The notes beneath the pieces were generated by a model. That model was given only the letters and a program-made list of their open reading frames with translations. It was not told the origin of the DNA and ran no database searches. The position numbers were made by a program, and so were the translations under genes. A stretch of 64,000 bases of DNA from assembly GCA_973895155.1 (NCBI GenBank), contig OZ316895.1:618435-682434 (forward strand), read 5' to 3'. The stretch is from Marsupella aquatica. Its lineage: Eukaryota; Plantae; Marchantiophyta. Numbering within the stretch: position 1 is the stretch's first letter; each line of letters begins with the position of its first letter. Below, piece by piece: positions 19,620 through 60,259 of the stretch.

Positions 19620-20453
19620 CACATACCCTCCACACGGAAGGGGTGTGGAGGGGGCATTGAACCTAGCACCTCTCAATTCTAGGCTCATCCCCCACTACTA
19701 CACCCCACCCACACATACACACACATACCCTCTACACCCCTTGCGTGTGGAGAGGGATTGAACCTGGCACCTCTTGGTTCTAGGCTCATCCCCTGGCCTG
19801 TTGAGCATAGACGACGATCGCAACGGCAAGCCCATGAACCATCCAACGCACAATAGTCGACACAAGAGATACGTGGTTCACCTCCTTGAGGCTACGTCCA
19901 CGGGAACACACAAGAGAGCTTTACTGAACTCTAAGCCCGTCGGCTATACCGAGTCTCCACAGTGTAAGCTCTCCCTATCTCTCAAGTGGCTCCATAACAA
20001 TGAGCCTTGGTTCTACCTCTCCAAGCACACATGCCTCTTATGATATAGTGTGCAACTTAGTTGTACCTAACCACATAGTTGTACCTAATCACGTAGTTGT
20101 ACCTAACCACATAGTTGTACCTAATCACGTAGTTGTACCTAACCACGTAGTTGTACCAACCCACGTTGTTGTACCAACCACGTCATACCTAACCTAGACG
20201 TAAGAGTAAATACCCAACAATCTTCCCCTTGACTCTGGTCTAGGGGAGAGTAATACTGCCAATGTATATGATCCCTCAGCGGGAAGTTCTGGACAGAAAC
20301 CAAACCGGTTTCCCTCTCTAACTAGAGCAAACCAGAACTAAGCCGTAGCCTAATACATAGGAATGAGGAAGAGCATATATCAGTAATTACAATGAATGTT
20401 TAAGAAAACTCTACTTGTGATGCAATTGCAAAACCTGCAATACGTCACGGTGT

Positions 20454-24719: not shown

Positions 24720-26515
24720 ATGAGAAAGTCACAAAAAATGTTGTTTTTCACAACTTCTCAAAAAACTCGAAACTCAACACCGCCGCGTAGCCCACAAAGC
24801 TAGGAGTCCAATACTGAAAACCAAAATCAAAATCAAAATTTGACGGAAAAGTTATTCAAATTTCGGTCGAGGTGGGTAAAACCTTGGGAAACTCCCCCGT
24901 TTTGACCACCTCAGGGAATAACCGAAATACCAAGTACAACCCATTGTCGGAATTGCGATGTGATTGGTGCGCTGCATTGCCAACTTCAATGGCTACGACC
25001 TCGCCGAAAAATAACCAAAAAAGTTACCGTTCGGCAAGATGAAATCTTTGTCGGACGGTCAAAAAATAGCTCTCTGGTTTTTTGGAATATTCTATGACCC
25101 TTGTACAGGCCCTGTGGGAATTTTGGAAGAACAATCGAGGGGCTGACATGTGTCCTCGAACCCCCAAAACCCCCTACCACCCTTCGTCGTCGAAATCTGG
25201 TCGCGCGCGCAGAAAATACACACGGCAGAATGTACCCCTCGACACCAAACGCAAGATATCTCACTCGGGTTTTGACGAAATCAAGATCCGATTTCAGATT
25301 TGGAAACTAGACTCCGAGGCGATGAAGATCGATATAAGAAGCACCCAAAACGAGGAAAGAACGAGGGAGAAAAAAATTGGTAAAGATGACAGATTTCTCT
25401 CAATTGCCATAGCCAATTTCGAATCAGTTTTTCAAAGAGAAAAAAATGGTACCTTGTCAACAACGAATGTTGATCAATTGCACTTGGTGCCGTCACCAAG
25501 TCCAACAAGGTAATTGATTTTGCTTAGCCTTCCTCTTTGCATCAAAGAGCCAATCCCGGACTCAAAAACAATCGTCTTGCCTCAATCTCTCCGTTGAGTC
25601 AAAACACTTGACGCTTCTCCCTCCGAGTCGATTGCCAACTTTCTTCACAAAATCCAGAACGACGAAAACTTAGATCTCTCTGCACCACGAGCTCCGTTCA
25701 ACGATTTCTTCACACCGTTAGAAAGCTCTTGCCCTGATCTATCCGTTGAGCCCATAAACTCCAAGTTCCATGCGATGGAACTCTGGAAAATCCACCAACA
25801 CTCAACGCTGGAAAAACCGTCATGAAATCCCGTCACGAACACACGTCACCTCCCAAGCATGCTCTGATACCAATTGTTGAGCATAGACGACGATCGCAAC
25901 GGCAAGCCCATGAACCATCCAACGCACAATAGTCGACACAAGAGATACGTGGTTCACCTCCTTGAGGCTACGTCCATGGGAACACACAAGAGAGCTTTAC
26001 TGAACTCTAAGCCCGTCGGCTATACTGAGTCTCCACAGTGTAAGCTCTCCCTATCTCTCAAGTGGCTCCATAACAATGAGCCTTGGTTCTACCTCTCCAA
26101 GCACACATGCCTCTTATGATATAGTGTGCAACTTAGTTGTACCTAACCACATAGTTGTACCTAATCACGTAGTTGTACCTAACCACGTAGTTGTACCAAC
26201 CCACGTTGTTGTACCAACCACGTCATACCTAACCTAGACGTAAGAGTAAATACCCAACATGGCCAACTGACCAAAGCCAGCTGGTTCTTTCTTGCTAGGT
26301 AGACGATAGAGACCCAGGCCAGCACGAGAGTAGATTTCTTGGATGGACAAATTATGGTTTGTTTGCTCGAATTTGGTGTTAGAGATTTCTCCGCTCAGTA
26401 GGGTGTTAGCCTTCACAGCTCCTTTGTTGGTTACTTTTTTTATCTTTGTTCCTTTGTGTGCTTTTGGTTGGGGACCCCTTGGCTTGTTTTTCTTGGGGCC
26501 CTTTCCCCTCCTTTA

Positions 26516-50303: not shown

Positions 50304-53300
50304 CTATGCCCCTTTTTGAGCTGGGTCCTGAACTACGCGCTTTCCATTCCCAGGGCCCCCAATCACCCCAGTTGTTTTGAATTGAACCTGTCTAGCTCTG
50401 GCCCTCTCCTTTTCTTCTGGTGACTTCAATGAGTAACAGTATGGGCATGAGACCCCTTCCTCCCATAGGGCAGACGTTTTATCATCATCGTTAACTGGTT
50501 TCTTACAAGCATAACATAGAGAGTGTGTCCCTTGTTTCAACCCATGCTCTACAGAGACGCGTTTGTCAAAGACAAAGCATTCCCCTTCCCATAAACTCTC
50601 TGCCGGAGTCACCTGCTCGAGGTATTTCAAAATTCCTCCTTCCAGATGGTACACCTGCTTGCAATTCACAGGTAATCTTGTCATTACCATCACGCTGTAC
50701 AATGGTGCATGAGAATCTCTCCGCTTGGAAGACAGCTAAACAGAAGGTCCAATTGAACACAACCTTGCAGTAGGACACAGAACTGTTCCCTAAAGGAGAG
50801 GATGGACACATTGTAGGGAAAGAAATGTTACGGCTGCACTGCCGCAACTTCGAGAGTAGCTTTCATAAGGAATGTATAACTGCTACTTTTGGAATTCAAC
50901 ATCTCAGACACATACCTCGTTAAACCCTTTTTCCATAAGATACGATGTGGCCTTTTCACATCTGATACCGCCCGTACAATACATAGCAATTCGCGTACGT
51001 TGTGCTTCTGTAGGAACTAGGTCACCCATCTCTGGCATCGAGTGGCCATTGTCCTCTGAAGTATTCGCTATCAAATCTTCACCCTCCTTGGGCGATTGAT
51101 TTGTCGACAATCTGAACCTATTCTCCACCCAGGTAGGGAACTCCCTGAAAGCCTCAGTCTTCGGATCCTCTGCTCCTTTGAATCTCCCAATCCGTACTTC
51201 ATAATCATTCCTTACATCTACTACGACCTGCCAAAACAATTTTCGAGTGAGAGAATGCGACGACCAGTCGTCAACAACTCTGAACAATGCGGAGGCACAG
51301 TCAAACGATCACTCACTTCGAGACGTCGCTCACATCACATCACCTTTCGACCCCTGTCATTTTATATGGACCGACTACAGCATACCGGAAATACAATGGA
51401 TTTTTGCAAAGTCAGGAGGTAACACACCGTTCTAGAATCCGAAATCAAAGCGTTCCAGTCCTTGGGCTTCACATACGTCCCTACTTTCTCCGAGGGTTTT
51501 ACACCTGGAACGCCCAAAGGCACAACCTGTCAAAGCTACACATAGTCAGCAACAATCTTATCAATCAGAAAGAGAGACAGAGCTAACACAAGACAGTAAA
51601 ACATTCAAGATCTTCCCGTATCTTAAGGCAGTCCCCGTGATCGACTCAATCTTTTATAGTGAGAGTCCTCTACAATGATTCCCTTCAACAATTGCTCGAT
51701 AGTGGAACGACTTCAAGTCCAGATAAATGTCCCTTCCAATGTCAACAGTATTTCCCATGAGTAAGAATGACCACAGCTTAAGGAAGACCTCTTAGAGGAC
51801 AATATGGCATAGCTGATAGACCAATACACCCATCTGAAACGGGCACACTAGCTTGCAATGTTATGCATTGGTGAAGGGTTTAGGTCCTTCAGGCTTACTG
51901 GATTATATAGACGAAACACAGTTATCCAAACGAAATTATGCAAAAATTCTGGTTAAAGTGACATCGAGCGGACCGAAGTCAGAGAGAAAACTCCCTCGGA
52001 AATGTCCCTTCCAATGTCAACAGTGATTCTCATGAGTAAGAATGACCACAGCTTAAGGAAGGCCTCTTAGAGGAGAAATACTGCATAGCTGATAGACCAA
52101 TACACCCATCTAAAACGGGCACACTAGCTTGCAATATTATGCATAAGGTGGAGGATTTAGGGCCTTCAGGCTTACCGGATTATATACGCCAAACACAATT
52201 ATCCTATAGAACTTATGCAAAAATTCTGGTGACATCTAGCGGATGATAATCAGGGAAAGTTCGCTCGGAAATGTCCCTTCCAATGTCAACAGTGATTCCC
52301 ATGAGTAAGAATGACCACAGCTTAAGGAAGACCGCTTAGAGGACAATGTTGCATAGCTGATAGACCAATATGCCCATCTGAAACGGGCACACTAGCTTGC
52401 AATATTATGCATAGGGTGTAGGATTGAGGCCTTAAGGGCGTACCGGATTATATAAGCCAATCACAGTGATCCGATGGAGCCAAAATTCTGGTTATAATGA
52501 CATAGAGAGGATGATAGTCAGGGAGGAAACTCCCTCGGAAATGTCCCTTCCAATGTCAACAGTGATTCTCATGAGTAAGAATGACCACAGCTTAAGGAAG
52601 ACCTCTTAGAGGACAATGTTGCATAGCTGATAGACCAACATACCCATCTAAAACGGGCACACTAGCTTGCAATATTATGCATAGGCTGAAGGGTTTAGGG
52701 CCTTCAGGCTTACCGGATTATCTACGCCAAACACAGTTATCCAAAGGAAATTATGCAAAAATTCTGGTTATTTGTGAATCTAGAGGATGATCGTCAGGGA
52801 AAAAGTTCCCTCGGAAATGTCCCTTCCAATGTCAACAGTGATTCCCATGAGTAAGAATGACCACAGCTTAAGGAAGACCTCTTAGAGGACAATGTTGCAT
52901 AGCTGATAGACCAATATACCCATCTGAAACGGGGACACTAGCTTGCAATACTATGCATCCAGAATTATCCACCCCAACGCCATTGGAGTACACGGAACTT
53001 CTGGTTCTGAATTGAGACGTTTCTTCAAGTTAGGGTGACAAGCATTACCCAAACGATGAAACTTACCAACCGTTTGCTCTTTCGTCTGTATTTCAATTAG
53101 TTCACTTCTCGAATGCAAAGACAGGGAGAAAATAATTTAAAATCCTAACACTGAGCTGTATAAGTGCGCACTTTTTCCTTTCCTTCCTTTCTCTGGGCGG
53201 CGGTTACATTAGGAGCGGAGTTAAGAATCACGACTTTACCTCAGTTTTCAATTTCACTCGAACGTGACCCCAGCGGAATGGAGCATCGTCACCAGCACCC

Positions 53301-54431
53301 AATGGAGACTTCGATGTATGACCATGGTGCAGTTCTTCCTCTTCTTCAGTGGCAGGAGCTTCATTTTTCCGCAAGTCCTTGAATCGCACGTCTGTCAGCA
53401 GTGTGGCAAAGACTTTGTCTACAGACTCTCGGGTTCCACATATGCTACCATTGATCCCCTCTGGAGCTAGGATAATTCCACCCGAGACTCGCTGCACGCA
53501 CGAAGTGCCGCAATACCACGATTAGAAATCCTAGATGACAACTGCTTCGTTGCACTGCTTGTTCGCGTGAAGAGAGCTTCACGCAGCCTATTCATAATTA
53601 TTTCGACAAACAGTCGCGATGGGACTGGGACAGCAACCCCTCAACTTCGACGAAATAATACCAAAAACAAGAAGGTGCTATAATGTTCATAAACGATACA
53701 AAACAAAATACCGATAGTGCTTTCTACGACAGCAATCGAAGACTGTGTTCAGCTGAGCCATACAATTTCCCGATCAGGGGCTGAGGTTACAAGGTTCGGT
53801 AACATGTTCTACGGATAACGAGTCACATACATTTTGGCTTAGGAGTGCTAACTTTAATCCGCTTCCCTGCAATGCACAAGCTTGCAAGTGCCGCCGCAGT
53901 AGCACTTCAAAGCATTTCACTCCCAGCGACCAAAGTAATCGAGGATTCAAAGGCGAGCCATGAGCTGGAAGCTATTACACATTACCCATGAAAAGATGGA
54001 ATAGAGACAGTTCAGTGAGAGAAAGAGAGAAAGGAAGGCAAGCACCTCACATGTGCATCACACAGCTCTCGCAAAGGTGTTCGCATTTCCACGTAGTCGG
54101 GGAGATCCGCAAACTTGTAGAACGACACCACCACGAGAGAGGAGGGTCTTCTCGCCTTAACAGCGGCATCTTCCTCCCCCTCAACTGCCGGACTCTTGAA
54201 GTCGTTCTCTCCATCACTCCGAGTGGCGGAGGTGGTAGGAACAGCAGCAAAGGAAGTAGTACGCTGCTCATGCTGAAGCTTTTGGCCCATCCATGCAATC
54301 CAACTCCGCCCCTTCTTCTTAGTCTCGGAAAATAACAAGCCTCTTCCGTTGCTTCCACCCTCTGTTCGCAGTATCAAAGGGCTGGACAAGCGCGTCAGTC
54401 CCGTCGCAGAGAACGCACTGGCGGCCCGCAT
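50304..54431 (-). CDS. STR7: Rhodanese-like domain protein, STR7 / TrhO (YceA, UPF0176) family, with a probable organellar transit peptide; exons 54431-54051, 53491-53240, 51526-51428, 51227-50916, 50654-50304
   Basis: [12 protein letters not shown]; [16 protein letters not shown]; [26 protein letters not shown]; [18 protein letters not shown]; [13 protein letters not shown]; [13 protein letters not shown]; [12 protein letters not shown]; C-terminal CxxC...CPxC. Confidence 0.92.
51725..51868 (-). ncRNA. Candidate box H/ACA snoRNA, copy A
   Basis: Hairpin, hinge (ATATTG), hairpin, then ACA-TTT on the host-gene strand. See first finding. Confidence 0.6.
52000..52144 (-). ncRNA. Candidate box H/ACA snoRNA, copy B (degenerate hinge)
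   Basis: Same fold. Hinge reads GTATTT; ACA box intact. Confidence 0.5.
52269..52412 (-). ncRNA. Candidate box H/ACA snoRNA, copy C
   Basis: Same fold. One G-U pair of the upper stem is G-C here; hinge ACATTG. Confidence 0.62.
52539..52682 (-). ncRNA. Candidate box H/ACA snoRNA, copy D
   Basis: Same fold. U-A/U-G exchanges only; hinge ACATTG. Confidence 0.62.
52815..52958 (-). ncRNA. Candidate box H/ACA snoRNA, copy E
   Basis: Same fold with one mismatch in the upper stem; hinge ACATTG. Confidence 0.58.
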
Positions 54432-54849: not shown

Positions 54850-55298
54850 TTTAGGGTTAGCCCACAAGGGGTCATACCAGGGATCCTAGGGTAACCCCAC
54901 AATGGGGTTGCACCTAAACCAGGAGAGAGATGGAGAGGTACATAGATAGATGAACAAAAGCCCAGATCATACCAGGGTTGCTAGAGTAAATAATCCCTCA
55001 CAAGGGGATTGTACCTAAACCAGGAGAGAGAGAGAGAGGGGGAGCGTCGAAGGAAAGCCCTGACCATACCAGGGATCCTAGGGTAACCCCCACAAGCCAG
55101 GGGGTTGGACCTAAACAGAGAGAGAGAGAGAGAAAAAAAAAAAAAACTCACCAGCTAGGGCTAAAGAGAACCAGGACTCCCACCCATACACCTAATCCAC
55201 ATGCAAACACCTTCCACAACCCTTGCATGTGGAAAGGGGGATTGAACCTGGGACCTCTAGGTTTTAGGCTAATCCCCTAGCCAACTGACCAAAGCTAG
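54850..55298 (-). mobile_element. tRNA-derived SINE-like copy with intact head and about three internal tandem units
   Basis: Head GGGATTGAACCTGGGACCTCTAGG...CCCCTAGCCAACTGACCAAAGC matches the element at 19117-26283. Unit CATACCAGGG...CCC.CACAA..GGG.TTG.ACCTAAAC.AG(GA)n occurs three times. Confidence 0.7.
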
Positions 55299-55373: not shown

Positions 55374-56398
55374 ATCTAGTTAGGGTGTCTCAGACCTATG
55401 AGAGACTATAGTTATTAGAGCCCTCTTGCATGTGTTAAGGTCCTTAGTTTTCCTTCCCTCAATCCACAGTTGGCATATGCATATTTGACCTAGAATTATG
55501 TGGAGAAGCCCCCTCTTCAGGCTAGGCTTAGAGCATCTCCTACATGACGCTATTGGCATACGGGAATGGGGCTTTCTACATAACCCCGTAGAGGAATGTT
55601 GAAAAGACACCTCCAATGGGAGAACGGGGATGCTACTACACTTTTGGTGAATGGGTATTTGTTTCTTGTGGGAATGGGATTCTGGACACCATATCCTCGA
55701 CCATGTCATCTGCAGGGTTCCTAACTCATTGGAACAGATGTAGATTGTACTATCAGTGGATGAGCGTCAGGCCTCCGCGGAGGAAGGAGGCCACACAAAC
55801 TGTTTCCTGTTTTGTGGTCAAGCACAAAGAAGCTCTTCAACAGAAATGGTGCCCAACATTTTAGGCTTGTCGTACCCGTTGGGATTGCACTTTGATTTCA
55901 CTCAACCCATACTCCCAGCATACGAATGCAAGACTACCAGGTATTAATGTATACAATGAGAGAAACCCATTACCATAGGAGATGCTCTTATGGCATACAA
56001 AGTGGATAACCAACGACAAGGGGTGTGATGCTTTGCCAGGATCACGAAGTAATAATTAAGCCTAAGATGATGGCTAAATAAGGATAGATAGAGGGTATGA
56101 GGTAACAATAAAGACCGATGCCGATTTCTACGTGTTAGATGATAAGGGAAAGATCCAACGGTTGAGATCCGGCGGGATTTGGAGTTATGACCTAATCCAG
56201 GCTTGATCACAAGACCCCTAAGTGGCGGCTTCAGAGTGAAGAGACCAATACTCTGCCATTTCATGTTCTCGTGTACACGGTCTCGACATTGAGGAGCGAC
56301 TGTCAGTCGAGTGCATGTGGTGGATTGGGAGATTGCGCAAGTTCTTGGCATTCAGTGGAATGAACACGGTGAATTAGACAGGGAAGTTCTGGGGCTGT

Positions 56399-59277
56399 TT
56401 GCTTGAAGAAGCAAGGCAGCTGATACCTACGTATGAAGACGTTGAGCCGGAGTGCACGGCTAGAGAACGAGCAAAGCTTGCGCGATTGTGGGGAATTCAC
56501 AAAACGACATTTGTAGATACGGAGGAGGTGTTGGAAAAGTTCTCGTGGACACCCACCAGTGCGGAGCTTGACGAATTGCTGATTCGGGAGAATAAGGTTG
56601 TGGGGATTAGGGAGGCAATCAAGAACGCAGGGCAGCCACTTTGGGAATTGAAGGGTCACACTGCGAAGTGGACAAAGGAAGCTATTCTTGGGGAGTATTC
56701 AGGCGCTGAAGAGATGAAGTGCAAGGGAAGTTTGGCATCTGCAACTCCGGCAAATCAAACTAGGTCAGAGAGACCAATCAAGACGGAAGCCGGGCCAATT
56801 AGAGATTGGGCTATAGAGAATAAAACCATGACAGGGTGGGCGGACAGGTTACCTGCCGATTTACAATTATAGTTCGCTAGAGATGAGGATGAGGTCTTCA
56901 GTGCCATTCAGGATAATAAATATGCAGGATATATGAATGACACTGGGTTGGAGGGCTTTGTCAGGTTGTCCTGGAGGATGGTAGACATACCAGATGAGGA
57001 TCTGTTGGACTTTGTGGGATGCTGGGAGGCTTCTTCCAACACGACGCTGCTGTATGGAAAGGTGTTTGAACTAACACCTGCGCTTATCGAAGCCATCTTT
57101 GCTTTACCAGCAGGAAGGAGGACGAGGAGCCTCCAAGCAAACGATGCCACGGGAGGAGGTCGGCAACACAGACAACACGAGAATGGGAGCATTCCCTTAT
57201 CAAGGAGCCAGAGGTAGTAACATATGATGTGGTGAGAAATCCGTTGCGCCGGCCTACTCGTAATAATCCATATGCAGGCATCCAATTGGTCGAGAGGAAG
57301 ATGACTGTCGAAGAGAGAAAGAAATATGACGAGCGAATGGATTCGGAGACAGATGAGGAGGTAAGCCGAAGCCAGGAGAGGCCGGTATTAAGAGCTTCTA
57401 ACAGAGCCCAAGTGGAGGTCAACCAGCAAAAGCCCAACAATATTCGAAGGAAGAGATCGGGGTTTTGGAGAAGAGGCCGACATGCTAGGTAGTCAGGTTA
57501 ATGTGGATGACTACGACGACGATTATGTCGATCACGGGGAGAGGCCGGTGCCAGGAGTTAGAACGATGGGAAGGTTTTGTAGAAGACTTCCTGCAGTCTT
57601 CTATGGCAAGCCAGAAGACCAGAAAACACCAGAATCTCCTCCACCAGATGTGACGCCATTAGAATTTGACAAGATGAAGGAAGCTGAAGCCGGGCTACAA
57701 GAGAGGATTAAGGAGTGGGGGGCCCAGACTGCAGAACAGGAATGCCAGCTACCAGGAGGAGAGTGGCCGGAAGAAATAAGACGGCTTAGTGAGAAGCAGG
57801 CCGAACCTCTCACTGACTTCGATCAGCTGAGGGAGGAGGCTTGGGAGAGACGACCCCGATGGCAGATGCCAGTATCACTTGGGAGGTCAAACTACGCAAG
57901 AAATTGAGCTAAGGAGTATGGAGACATGTGTGGACTCTTAGCCTTAGAAATCTTCGGTAACGAGTTGGAATCCGGGCCATTTCTTAGAAAAGAAGTGGCT
58001 GATCAGACGAGACTGGAGGAGGCAATGACATTAGAGCGATTGAAGAAGGAGGAAGTGATCGCTCGGCTTCGCGGCATGCAAACAAAGGTGGCTAAATCAA
58101 GGGTGAATCAACAAGCACAGCAGGATCTCTTGGCTAAGCAGCAGGAATTAGAGATGGTGAACAACCAATTGGAAAACTACCAATTGGATAACCAGCAGAT
58201 TAAAGAGAATTGACAAAGGTGCAGCTGGAGTTAGCCGATGCGAGGGAGGAGGTACAGGGTCTTAATCGGCAAGTCGGTAGGCTTAGGAAGGCGGCTAAAG
58301 ACCAGACCACTTAGAGCGAGAAGGCCTTGGCCGCAGCCCAAGGGAAGCATGAAAAGCTACTTGATCGGCTGGATGTCGTGCGGGAGAAACATGAGGACGC
58401 CCTAAGTACAGCGGCCAATGATCACCTAAGCCGAGCCCAGCAAATACGGAAGGAGCTTCAGGGGGGATATAGAGAAGACAAAGAAGGCATGGAAGGAAAA
58501 GGTCACGAAGCTGGAAACCATCAATAACTCCTTGAAGGCAGCCGCTGATAAGCAAGAGTTGGAGAACGTGCAGATCTTAAATGAGGAGCTGAAGGCGGCA
58601 AGGCTGAGATATTACCGCTTAACGATGAAGTTGAAGACGTATCTCAGGAGTTGAAGGAGGCCAAGGATAAGATGATCGGGTTGTAGAGGCGTGCCGACAA
58701 TCAAACGGAGATATTGAAGAAGTATGCCGAAGCGGGATATGGGTCACCAACTGAAAGGCTGCCCGTCAGTAGTATGGTAGGCGGAAATACAATGAAGCCG
58801 AAGCCAAAGCCGAGCTCACTGTTGTCAAGCGTGACTGGGGGCAAAGCCATGCAGTTAGTGGCAGATTTGGCAAAGACGTTCATGGGGCCGGGCGATAATA
58901 AAGTTAAACCCCTTAAAGCCACTCCGGAGGAAGTTGAGAGCATGGTCGCTCACATTTGCCGTACTGTGGCCCTGAAGGCAGTTGTGGTAGAGGTAAGTAC
59001 TGCGGATCAACTTGGAGCTGCGGTGACAGGTTCAGACGATGGTACTGCTTCTATGGACGCCCAGAACGTGAAGCCGTGGGTTATCGAGACCGAGCGCATC
59101 GGGGAGCAGGCTTGGATTGAGGAAGTTAAGGCAAAAGCTCTCCAGGCCGTTGCCGAGGAGGATGAAGCCGAGGCCAAACCCGAAGCCGTAGTTAATGTGG
59201 CCGAGGGTAGTCAGCCGAAGCCGAGTATAGGGGAAGGTGCAGAGTTGGACGGCTCAGGATTACCACCGGTCATCTGA
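56399..59277 (+). pseudogene. Decayed intronless long ORF (acidic and coiled-coil segments), probably a retroelement accessory ORF
   Basis: Seven consecutive purine-rich + strand ORF fragments separated by stops and frameshifts, with no splice structure. A coiled-coil stretch spans ~57950-58700. No catalytic motif recognised. Confidence 0.45.
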
Positions 59278-59962
59278 CAATTAAGGCGGGCCAGTCGTCG
59301 GTTGGAAGGAGGACATGGCGGAAGGAGAAGGGCTTGGGCCAGGAGGGCGCGGCCGTTGTAGGATGTGGACAGGGCAAGTAGCGCTCTGTCGGCTTGAATA
59401 GTTCGATTCTGTTAGAGGTCCGGATCCATTGGGTTTCCGGCTTAGGCAGATTAGTTTTGTTTTTTGTTCAATAAAGAGGATTATTGCGGTGGCAAGGCGG
59501 GATTGCAGGGGTAGGCTTTCCGCGCTTCTTTCAGTCACGGTGCAAGGATAAAAACCCGGGCAGCGTGGCTGGGAGGGGTTGTTTTCTTAGTCAAGGCTTT
59601 AGTGTAAAATTTGTATTGTTGTGAGCACAGGAAGCTCTCGGCTAAATCTAGACCGCAGGATATCAATAAACTACCAGTTCCCTTGGATTTCTGAGCAATT
59701 GTTTGAATTGAGTTGACCTCGTTGCCTAGTTCACAAATTCTTGTCATCCAAGAAGTTGAGTGTTGTGATATCTGTTGCTTGATCGATTTAAGTCAGATAG
59801 GGTGAACTGTTGAGCAAAGTACAATTGCATTGTCTTGATTGGAGACTGCCCAATCAAACTCTGAGAGAAAAGTGAGGATTGAGAGTGTTTAGTCGGTGAA
59901 GTGTGGGTTGAGTCCGTCTGAAAAAGACCTTCAGCCGGCTTAAGAAATTAAGCCATAGAGGT

Positions 59963-60259
59963 CTCGGGGATCTCACTATATGAGGACCTTCCCATCATCT
60001 ACGACGTTTTTAGGCCTTGAACCCCCTAAAATGTAAGAAAAAATAATTATTTTTTAACCCCTATAAAGTTAGAATATTCTTGGAATATTCCCAAAATTGG
60101 ATTAAAAAGACCCTAATATTCTTATAAGTCTCAAAATTGAATTTAAAAGATCCTATTGTTTTTCTACAAAAATTCTTAAGTCTTCCCTTAGAACCAATAA
60201 AATGACCCTATTCTTCGTCGCACGTGATATGCCATTTTTGTGGAAGTGAAACCCCCGAG
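59963..60259. mobile_element. MITE related to the CTCGGGG-terminated 8-bp-TSD family
   Basis: CTCGGGGATCTCACT ... AGTGAAACCCCCGAG; TSD ATAGAGGT/GTAGAGGT (7/8); AT-rich interior with AGAATATTC motifs. Confidence 0.8.

Follow-up and report, generated by a model that had tools for sequence, protein, structure and literature searches.

The window analysed here, a 64,000-nt (64-kb) stretch of DNA from the liverwort Marsupella aquatica, carries a gene for a rhodanese-like protein whose second intron holds a tandem array of a short conserved module (Table 1). All five host exons align to a protein of Calypogeia fissa at 76-93% identity. The last exon shares 88% identity with that protein and ~70-77% with rhodanese-like protein 7 of other land plants, and the Pfam domains UPF0176_N and Rhodanese_C were recovered in 2 of the 4 host exon pieces scanned. 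Upstream of the start of the host gene, at 54873-55135, there are three copies of a ~96-101-nt unit together with GA runs.

Table 1 Features of the host gene and of the intronic array, in window coordinates
Feature	Position	Strand	Remarks
Host gene, rhodanese-like protein 7 (STR7; UPF0176/TrhO family)	50304..54431	-	five coding exons
Host intron 2, 1713 nt	51527..53239	-	GT-AG, phase 0; flanking exons join in frame
Module A, predicted H/ACA snoRNA copy	52815..52957	-	hinge ACAUUG; a single pair lost, within the hairpin 1 upper stem
Spacer after A, 133 nt	52682..52814	-	faster-evolving; short hairpin at its start
Module B, predicted H/ACA snoRNA copy	52539..52681	-	hinge ACAUUG; every modelled pair intact
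Spacer after B, 127 nt	52412..52538	-	
Module C, predicted H/ACA snoRNA copy	52269..52411	-	hinge ACAUUG; a single pair lost, within the small hairpin of the hinge
Pocket 1, 5' guide strand AUUGCAA, copy C	52397..52403	-	predicted partner 18S 1557-1563; identical in 5/5 copies
Pocket 1, 3' guide strand UCUAUC, copy C	52359..52364	-	predicted partner 18S 1548-1553; identical in 5/5 copies
Hinge box, copy C	52344..52349	-	judged by the ANANNR definition in the available part of PMC2685112
ACA box, followed by UUU, copy C	52272..52274	-	identical in 5/5 copies
Spacer after C, 125 nt	52144..52268	-	
Module D	52000..52143	-	pockets and ACA intact; hinge box lost (GUAUUU)
Spacer after D, 132 nt	51868..51999	-	
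Module E, predicted H/ACA snoRNA copy	51725..51867	-	hinge AUAUUG; two pairs lost; folds most weakly

Tandem Repeats Finder places the repeat at 51725-52958, with a period of 276 and 4.5 copies. On the minus strand, alignment resolves it into five modules, each 143-144 nt long, separated by four spacers of 125-133 nt, which confirms an earlier note on this DNA that had described an array bounded exactly by ~144-nt modules with more variable spacers between them. Pairwise identity is 92.5-96.6% for the modules and 75.8-87.7% for the spacers. When four modules (B-E) were compared with the four spacers, 14 of 143 ungapped module columns varied, as against 39 of 118 in the spacers (Fisher p = 4.7e-6), and gap columns numbered 1 and 15, respectively. 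The equal divergence of module and spacer that the earlier note had named as grounds for abandoning its reading was thus not found. Conservation drops sharply at the module edges (p = 5e-6), and the likeness of copy E to the other modules stops at ACA-UUU. A covariance model built from the five modules scores them at 169-179 bits, which is high by construction; a search of the 64-kb window with this model returned no sixth module, the next match reaching 13.2 bits. The flanks of the array bear no significant likeness to the spacers, the faint spacer-like words upstream of copy A being matched in score by 42-183 of 1000 shuffles. The array originated by tandem duplication of one module-plus-flank unit, with the modules kept by selection.

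The spacers themselves fold like shuffled sequences (z -0.14 to -0.88). A C/D snoRNA within them was considered, as CUGA occurs in 4/4, and was dropped when no box C could be seen by eye. Immediately after modules A, B and D comes a 6-bp hairpin (52796-52812, 52520-52536 and 51981-51997, minus strand); one of its pairs differs on both sides, being A-U in A and G-C in the other two. The hairpin is broken in C and missing after E. This hairpin may be a processing signal.

The array is also covered by contigs of a related organism, obtained from two sequencing runs. Of the 40 substitutions listed there (at least 40 in total), 36 fall within the array, with 33 in 517 nt of spacer versus 3 in 716 nt of module, and all 11 indels lie in spacers; these counts are biased by contigs that collapse and break in the near-identical modules, and by spacer contigs possibly lying on a paralogous spacer, and are therefore taken only as evidence of presence and of a consistent trend. 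Each of the three changes in modules leaves a pair intact or restores one.

The consensus fold of the five copies (143-144 nt) consists of hairpin 1, a hinge, hairpin 2 and ACA-UUU, with 98% of 205 cells paired. Hairpin 1 has a 6-bp lower stem, an internal loop and an upper stem of 13-14 bp that includes six G-U pairs, its loop reading UUCAG or UUUAG, and the hinge holds a small 4-bp hairpin. Each element previously described, namely the lower stem, the 14-bp upper stem with its six G-U pairs, the hinge hairpin, hairpin 2 and the terminal ACA-UUU, is present in the sequence. The H/ACA architecture had been called established, which is too strong; we grade it as predicted. Hairpin 1 of copy C folds more stably than its shuffles (z = -3.8), and hairpin 2 shows no excess of stability over shuffles (z = -0.33). 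Whole modules have z scores between -2.56 and +0.42. Four of the five copies, folded singly, pair their hinge with the 3' tail, so that the ACA is not left free.

Among the ten stem changes between copies, six keep the pair and four break it. Against an expectation of 21-40%, this proportion of pair-keeping changes gives p = 0.008-0.16, depending on the transition bias assumed, in a test that uses a structure derived from the same five sequences. None of the 41 modelled pairs displays two-sided covariation, with only 16 variable columns in the five copies, which is too little variation. The earlier statement that most differences keep pairing therefore holds as a count, and it overstated covariation, since four changes break a pair and none is two-sided. 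The absence of two-sided changes and the weak whole-module folding in 4/5 copies are what would be expected of a functionless tandem repeat or a decayed transposon homogenised by gene conversion. We regard this explanation as very unlikely given the abrupt change in conservation at the module edges, the lack of any additional copy within 64 kb, and the box motifs and correctly spaced match to rRNA described below.

ACA-UUU is found in 5/5 copies, the ACA standing three bases before the end of the conserved unit. The hinge box reads ACAUUG in A, B and C, AUAUUG in E and GUAUUU in D. No copy (0/5) has box H in the strict form ANANNA, as position 6 is never an A. An Arabidopsis H/ACA screen, in the portion of its text available, defined box H as ANANNR (PMC2685112), and because this is the rule of that screen, four of the five copies pass and D fails. 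Membership in the box H/ACA class is claimed on the ANANNR definition only, and copy D, which is probably impaired, is not counted as a working member. The hinge starting with ANA that had been reported for the array is thus found in A, B, C and E and is lost in D, a copy whose GUAUUU had gone unmentioned. The ANANNG hinge had been entered as a caveat; it is a real departure from ANANNA, and a small one, since ANANNR was used for Arabidopsis in the accessible part of PMC2685112.

A comparison with Rfam, proposed in the earlier note as a check, yielded no match at the gathering threshold in the 64 kb, and no snoRNA family of Rfam was matched even at E up to 10. The sub-threshold matches were to microRNA or cis-element families only. 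With microRNA families as the sole hints from Rfam, and with a hairpin 1 that is long and stable, a cluster of microRNA or siRNA hairpins is a conceivable reading of the array. The scores concerned are 18.1 and 15.3 bits, however, against cut-offs of 100 and 80. In addition, the conserved unit spans 143 nt and stops precisely at ACA-UUU, the stem runs unbroken for just 13-14 bp, and the pocket bases are conserved like the stem, all of which argues against microRNA or siRNA precursors and makes them highly improbable.

The internal loop of hairpin 1 (pocket 1) offers a candidate target. A possible fit to the 18S 3' major domain was first spotted by eye. For the scan, stand-in rRNA was taken from plant rDNA contaminating bacterial assemblies (64 loci), of which one, L024, was used and delimited with Rfam; the stand-in loci were picked by a pattern containing the target motif. 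Most of these 64 bacterial or archaeal representative contigs (L002-L065) carry plant or algal 18S rDNA, that is, assembly contamination, and L012 and L050 among them are chance matches.

Pocket 1 pairs with the stand-in plant 18S through 6 + 7 Watson-Crick pairs around U1554. The 18S segment GAUAGA (1548-1553) pairs with UCUAUC, and UUGCAAU (1557-1563) pairs with AUUGCAA, which leaves U1554, C1555 and A1556 unpaired and places a G opposite A1556 beside the upper stem. The two variable positions of the pocket fall just outside the paired bases. The distance from the target to the hinge box is 15 nt, within the 14-16 nt taken as criterion, and the match with the stand-in plant rRNA also agrees with a two-part pairing of eight or more pairs around the target uridine. 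According to the part of a yeast study available, 8 pairs suffice, more than 2 unpaired bases are tolerated and the 5'-most unpaired uridine is the one modified (PMC6049503).

Over all registers of pocket 1 tried, the best score is that of U1554 (28), the runner-up (27) requiring a register in which the upper stem is opened, and U1554 is the top site for 5/5 copies among 1168 uridines. With 13 Watson-Crick pairs it is the sole best of 1137 rRNA uridines (~150 nt of 25S left out). Thirteen or more Watson-Crick pairs in any of nine registers were reached by 3 of 3000 shuffles, a measure chosen after the match had been seen, and 1 of 3000 was both as good and located on a known pseudouridine; the top match of a shuffled pocket was a known site in 484/3000. 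In a fixed register, the score is significant, with 17 of 600 shuffles doing as well. When wobble pairs and one mismatch are allowed over nine registers, the score is not significant (115/400 shuffles score as well).

For pocket 2, the best rRNA matches have 8 Watson-Crick pairs, and none is at a known site. Candidates that appeared when wobble was allowed (22-28) were weak and in poor registers, and none was accepted; a one-sided fit near 25S U2265 was likewise not accepted. The pocket strands of hairpin 2 are invariant in the five copies, and this hairpin may be purely structural. The combination of a conserved hairpin 2 without an rRNA target, a wobble-tolerant 18S score that is not significant, and a loop 1 (UUYAG) loosely resembling the Cajal-body signal, whose CAB box consensus is ugAG, might indicate that the H/ACA-fold RNA has another main job, as a scaRNA for a spliceosomal snRNA or as an orphan, with the 18S match arising by chance or being secondary. 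We consider this unlikely, as 13 Watson-Crick pairs lie at the right distance from the hinge box, on a site that was afterwards found to be modified.

U1554 was predicted first, and its modification state was looked up afterwards. In the available part of a BID-seq study, the pseudouridine fraction at 18S:1554 is 0.98 in Arabidopsis (listed as 'bid-seq only') and 0.997 in soybean, and fractions of 0.99 and 1.0 are given for maize 1557 and rice 1556 (PMC12273003), two positions equated with 1554 by inference from offsets. The numbering is consistent, in that 92/92 Arabidopsis sites with a fraction of at least 0.2 within the range of the stand-in map to uridines. The reading of the array as an intronic H/ACA snoRNA cluster, put forward in the earlier note, is strengthened by these data, since pocket 1 fits U1554 at the right distance and the site is a pseudouridine in four angiosperms.

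Other sources describe this nucleotide differently, as far as their accessible portions extend. Mass spectrometry of tomato lists 18S 1535, 1538 and 1567, and 1554 is absent from the part available (PMC9483110). An Arabidopsis table enters U1550 (= 1554) solely under methylation and marks its guide 'nd' (PMC8351944), and RiboMethSeq called Um1554, 'snoRNA not found' (PMC8583080). A later review, which marks Um1554 as missing from two other plants, proposes that a stand-alone enzyme may be responsible (PMC11542601). In a second RiboMeth set the position was left uncalled, with scores of ~0.53 in wild type and 0.60-0.69 in fibrillarin mutants (PMC8053127), and the accessible sections of a tobacco structure paper contain no passage on the 1554 site (PMC10281867). 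The Arabidopsis 'Um1554' is the same nucleotide as the target predicted here, read in the available parts of two of these sources as a 2'-O-methylation without a C/D guide (PMC8583080, PMC11542601). A parallel is found in 25S, where the guide-less Um378 (PMC8583080) is pseudouridine 378 in the tomato mass spectrometry data available (PMC9483110), and where the accessible BID-seq value for Arabidopsis 25S:377 is 1.0 (PMC12273003). For this reason, orphan RiboMethSeq calls at uridines deserve re-checking.

Taken together, we interpret the array as five tandem intronic copies of an H/ACA snoRNA gene, with hairpin 1 as the predicted guide for 18S U1554, and assign this reading a probability of about 0.85. 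H/ACA RNAs assemble with CBF5, NOP10, NHP2 and GAR1. In the mechanism that we propose, the array would be co-transcribed with the host gene, the precursor would be cut within the spacers, the snoRNA would assemble with CBF5 and its partners, and hairpin 1 would guide pseudouridine formation at U1554. Plant snoRNAs are, according to the available part of PMC5122169, mostly released from polycistronic precursors through cleavage by enzymes of the RNase III type, with trimming afterwards. The array is in the transcribed orientation within its host intron, a placement that would suit a cis-acting intronic structure tuning host splicing or expression. Distances of 198 nt to the acceptor and 282 nt to the donor weigh against such a role, and a cis-acting structure would leave the ACA end and the 18S match unexplained; we hold this possibility to be exceedingly unlikely. 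As for the snoRNA cluster and its host, the earlier note had hinted at a connection with the tRNA-modifying homologue of the host protein, for which this analysis provides no support, and the host gene is likely merely a carrier.

Intronic clusters of H/ACA snoRNAs within the same gene are already known, and the liverwort array is probably a further such cluster with a new, predicted H/ACA snoRNA. The accessible part of PMC2875012 describes, for Arabidopsis, snoR155a/b/c (RPL23A intron 2), snoR100a/b/c (At5g08180), snoR79a/b/c (At1g31860), snoR90a/b, snoR87-2a/b and snoR110-2a/b. As in the liverwort array, one intron of a protein-coding gene contains several copies of the same H/ACA guide; the Arabidopsis guides, as listed there, are 95-200 nt long and their hosts include non-ribosomal genes. 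The liverwort array has five copies, whereas the Arabidopsis clusters listed have two or three, and none of the cluster RNAs listed in that part of PMC2875012 targets 18S U1550/1554. The liverwort array also has no sequence match to any Rfam family. Among single guides, Arabidopsis snoR152a/b target U1531 (i.e. 1535) and snoR138/154 target U1479, as given in the accessible part of PMC8351944 (Supplementary Table 3). The liverwort module resembles them as a predicted two-hairpin guide of ~150 nt with one working pocket directed at the 18S 3' major domain, and differs from them in its predicted target (U1554).

Intronic snoRNA clusters also occur in rice and Drosophila, and intronic snoRNA gene clusters of Chlamydomonas were reportedly described by Chen et al. 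in 2008. The likeness to these three is by description only, as snoRNA genes inside introns. Among the papers listed by a literature search on intronic snoRNAs of Marchantia, none concerned the subject by its title. Three metagenome loci that matched a two-motif pattern of the module proved to be one unrelated inverted-repeat element (at most 11.3 bits with the module model), so no homologue was found beyond the source and the related organism. These loci (L066:2030-2194, L067:2950-3050 and L068:1292-1440) form one MITE-like family with long terminal inverted repeats on animal-like metagenome contigs, matching no Rfam family at threshold. Scans of viral contigs for rDNA gave 0, 1 and 0 loci, and searches of plasmids and phages gave none. 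The available part of a plant structured-RNA screen mentions neither the host gene nor liverworts (PMC12218528).

With the gene class and its layout known, the array does not change the understanding of snoRNAs. Its significance lies in a link between a predicted liverwort RNA gene that had no annotation and an rRNA modification that is near-complete and has no guide in the sources searchable. The accessible parts of the Arabidopsis tables in PMC8351944, PMC2685112 and PMC2875012 give no guide for 18S 1550/1554. A search of full texts for 18S pseudouridine 1554 by number found none, within a scope outside which subscription rice catalogues and snoRNA databases may list a guide. We judge it somewhat more likely than not that this is the first guide identified for plant 18S pseudouridine 1554. 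If the prediction is correct, both the modification and its guide would already have existed in the ancestor that liverworts and flowering plants share, the Arabidopsis 'Um1554' would be a mis-read pseudouridine for which a stand-alone methyltransferase is unneeded, and an Arabidopsis H/ACA RNA, orphan or unannotated, would carry the same two guide strands. These strands and their spacing could serve directly as a query pattern for finding the missing guide of angiosperms. The five-copy array would further display the birth and decay of snoRNA copies within one intron.

Two other features of the window lie apart from the array. The same 18-nt unit forms two tandem arrays 6 kb apart, at 20058-20183 (7.1 copies) and 26134-26223 (5.1 copies), which may mark the ends of a mobile element. 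At 56001-60000, a 4-kb region with a GC content near 50%, the GC skew changes sign to +0.25, which suggests an inserted element.
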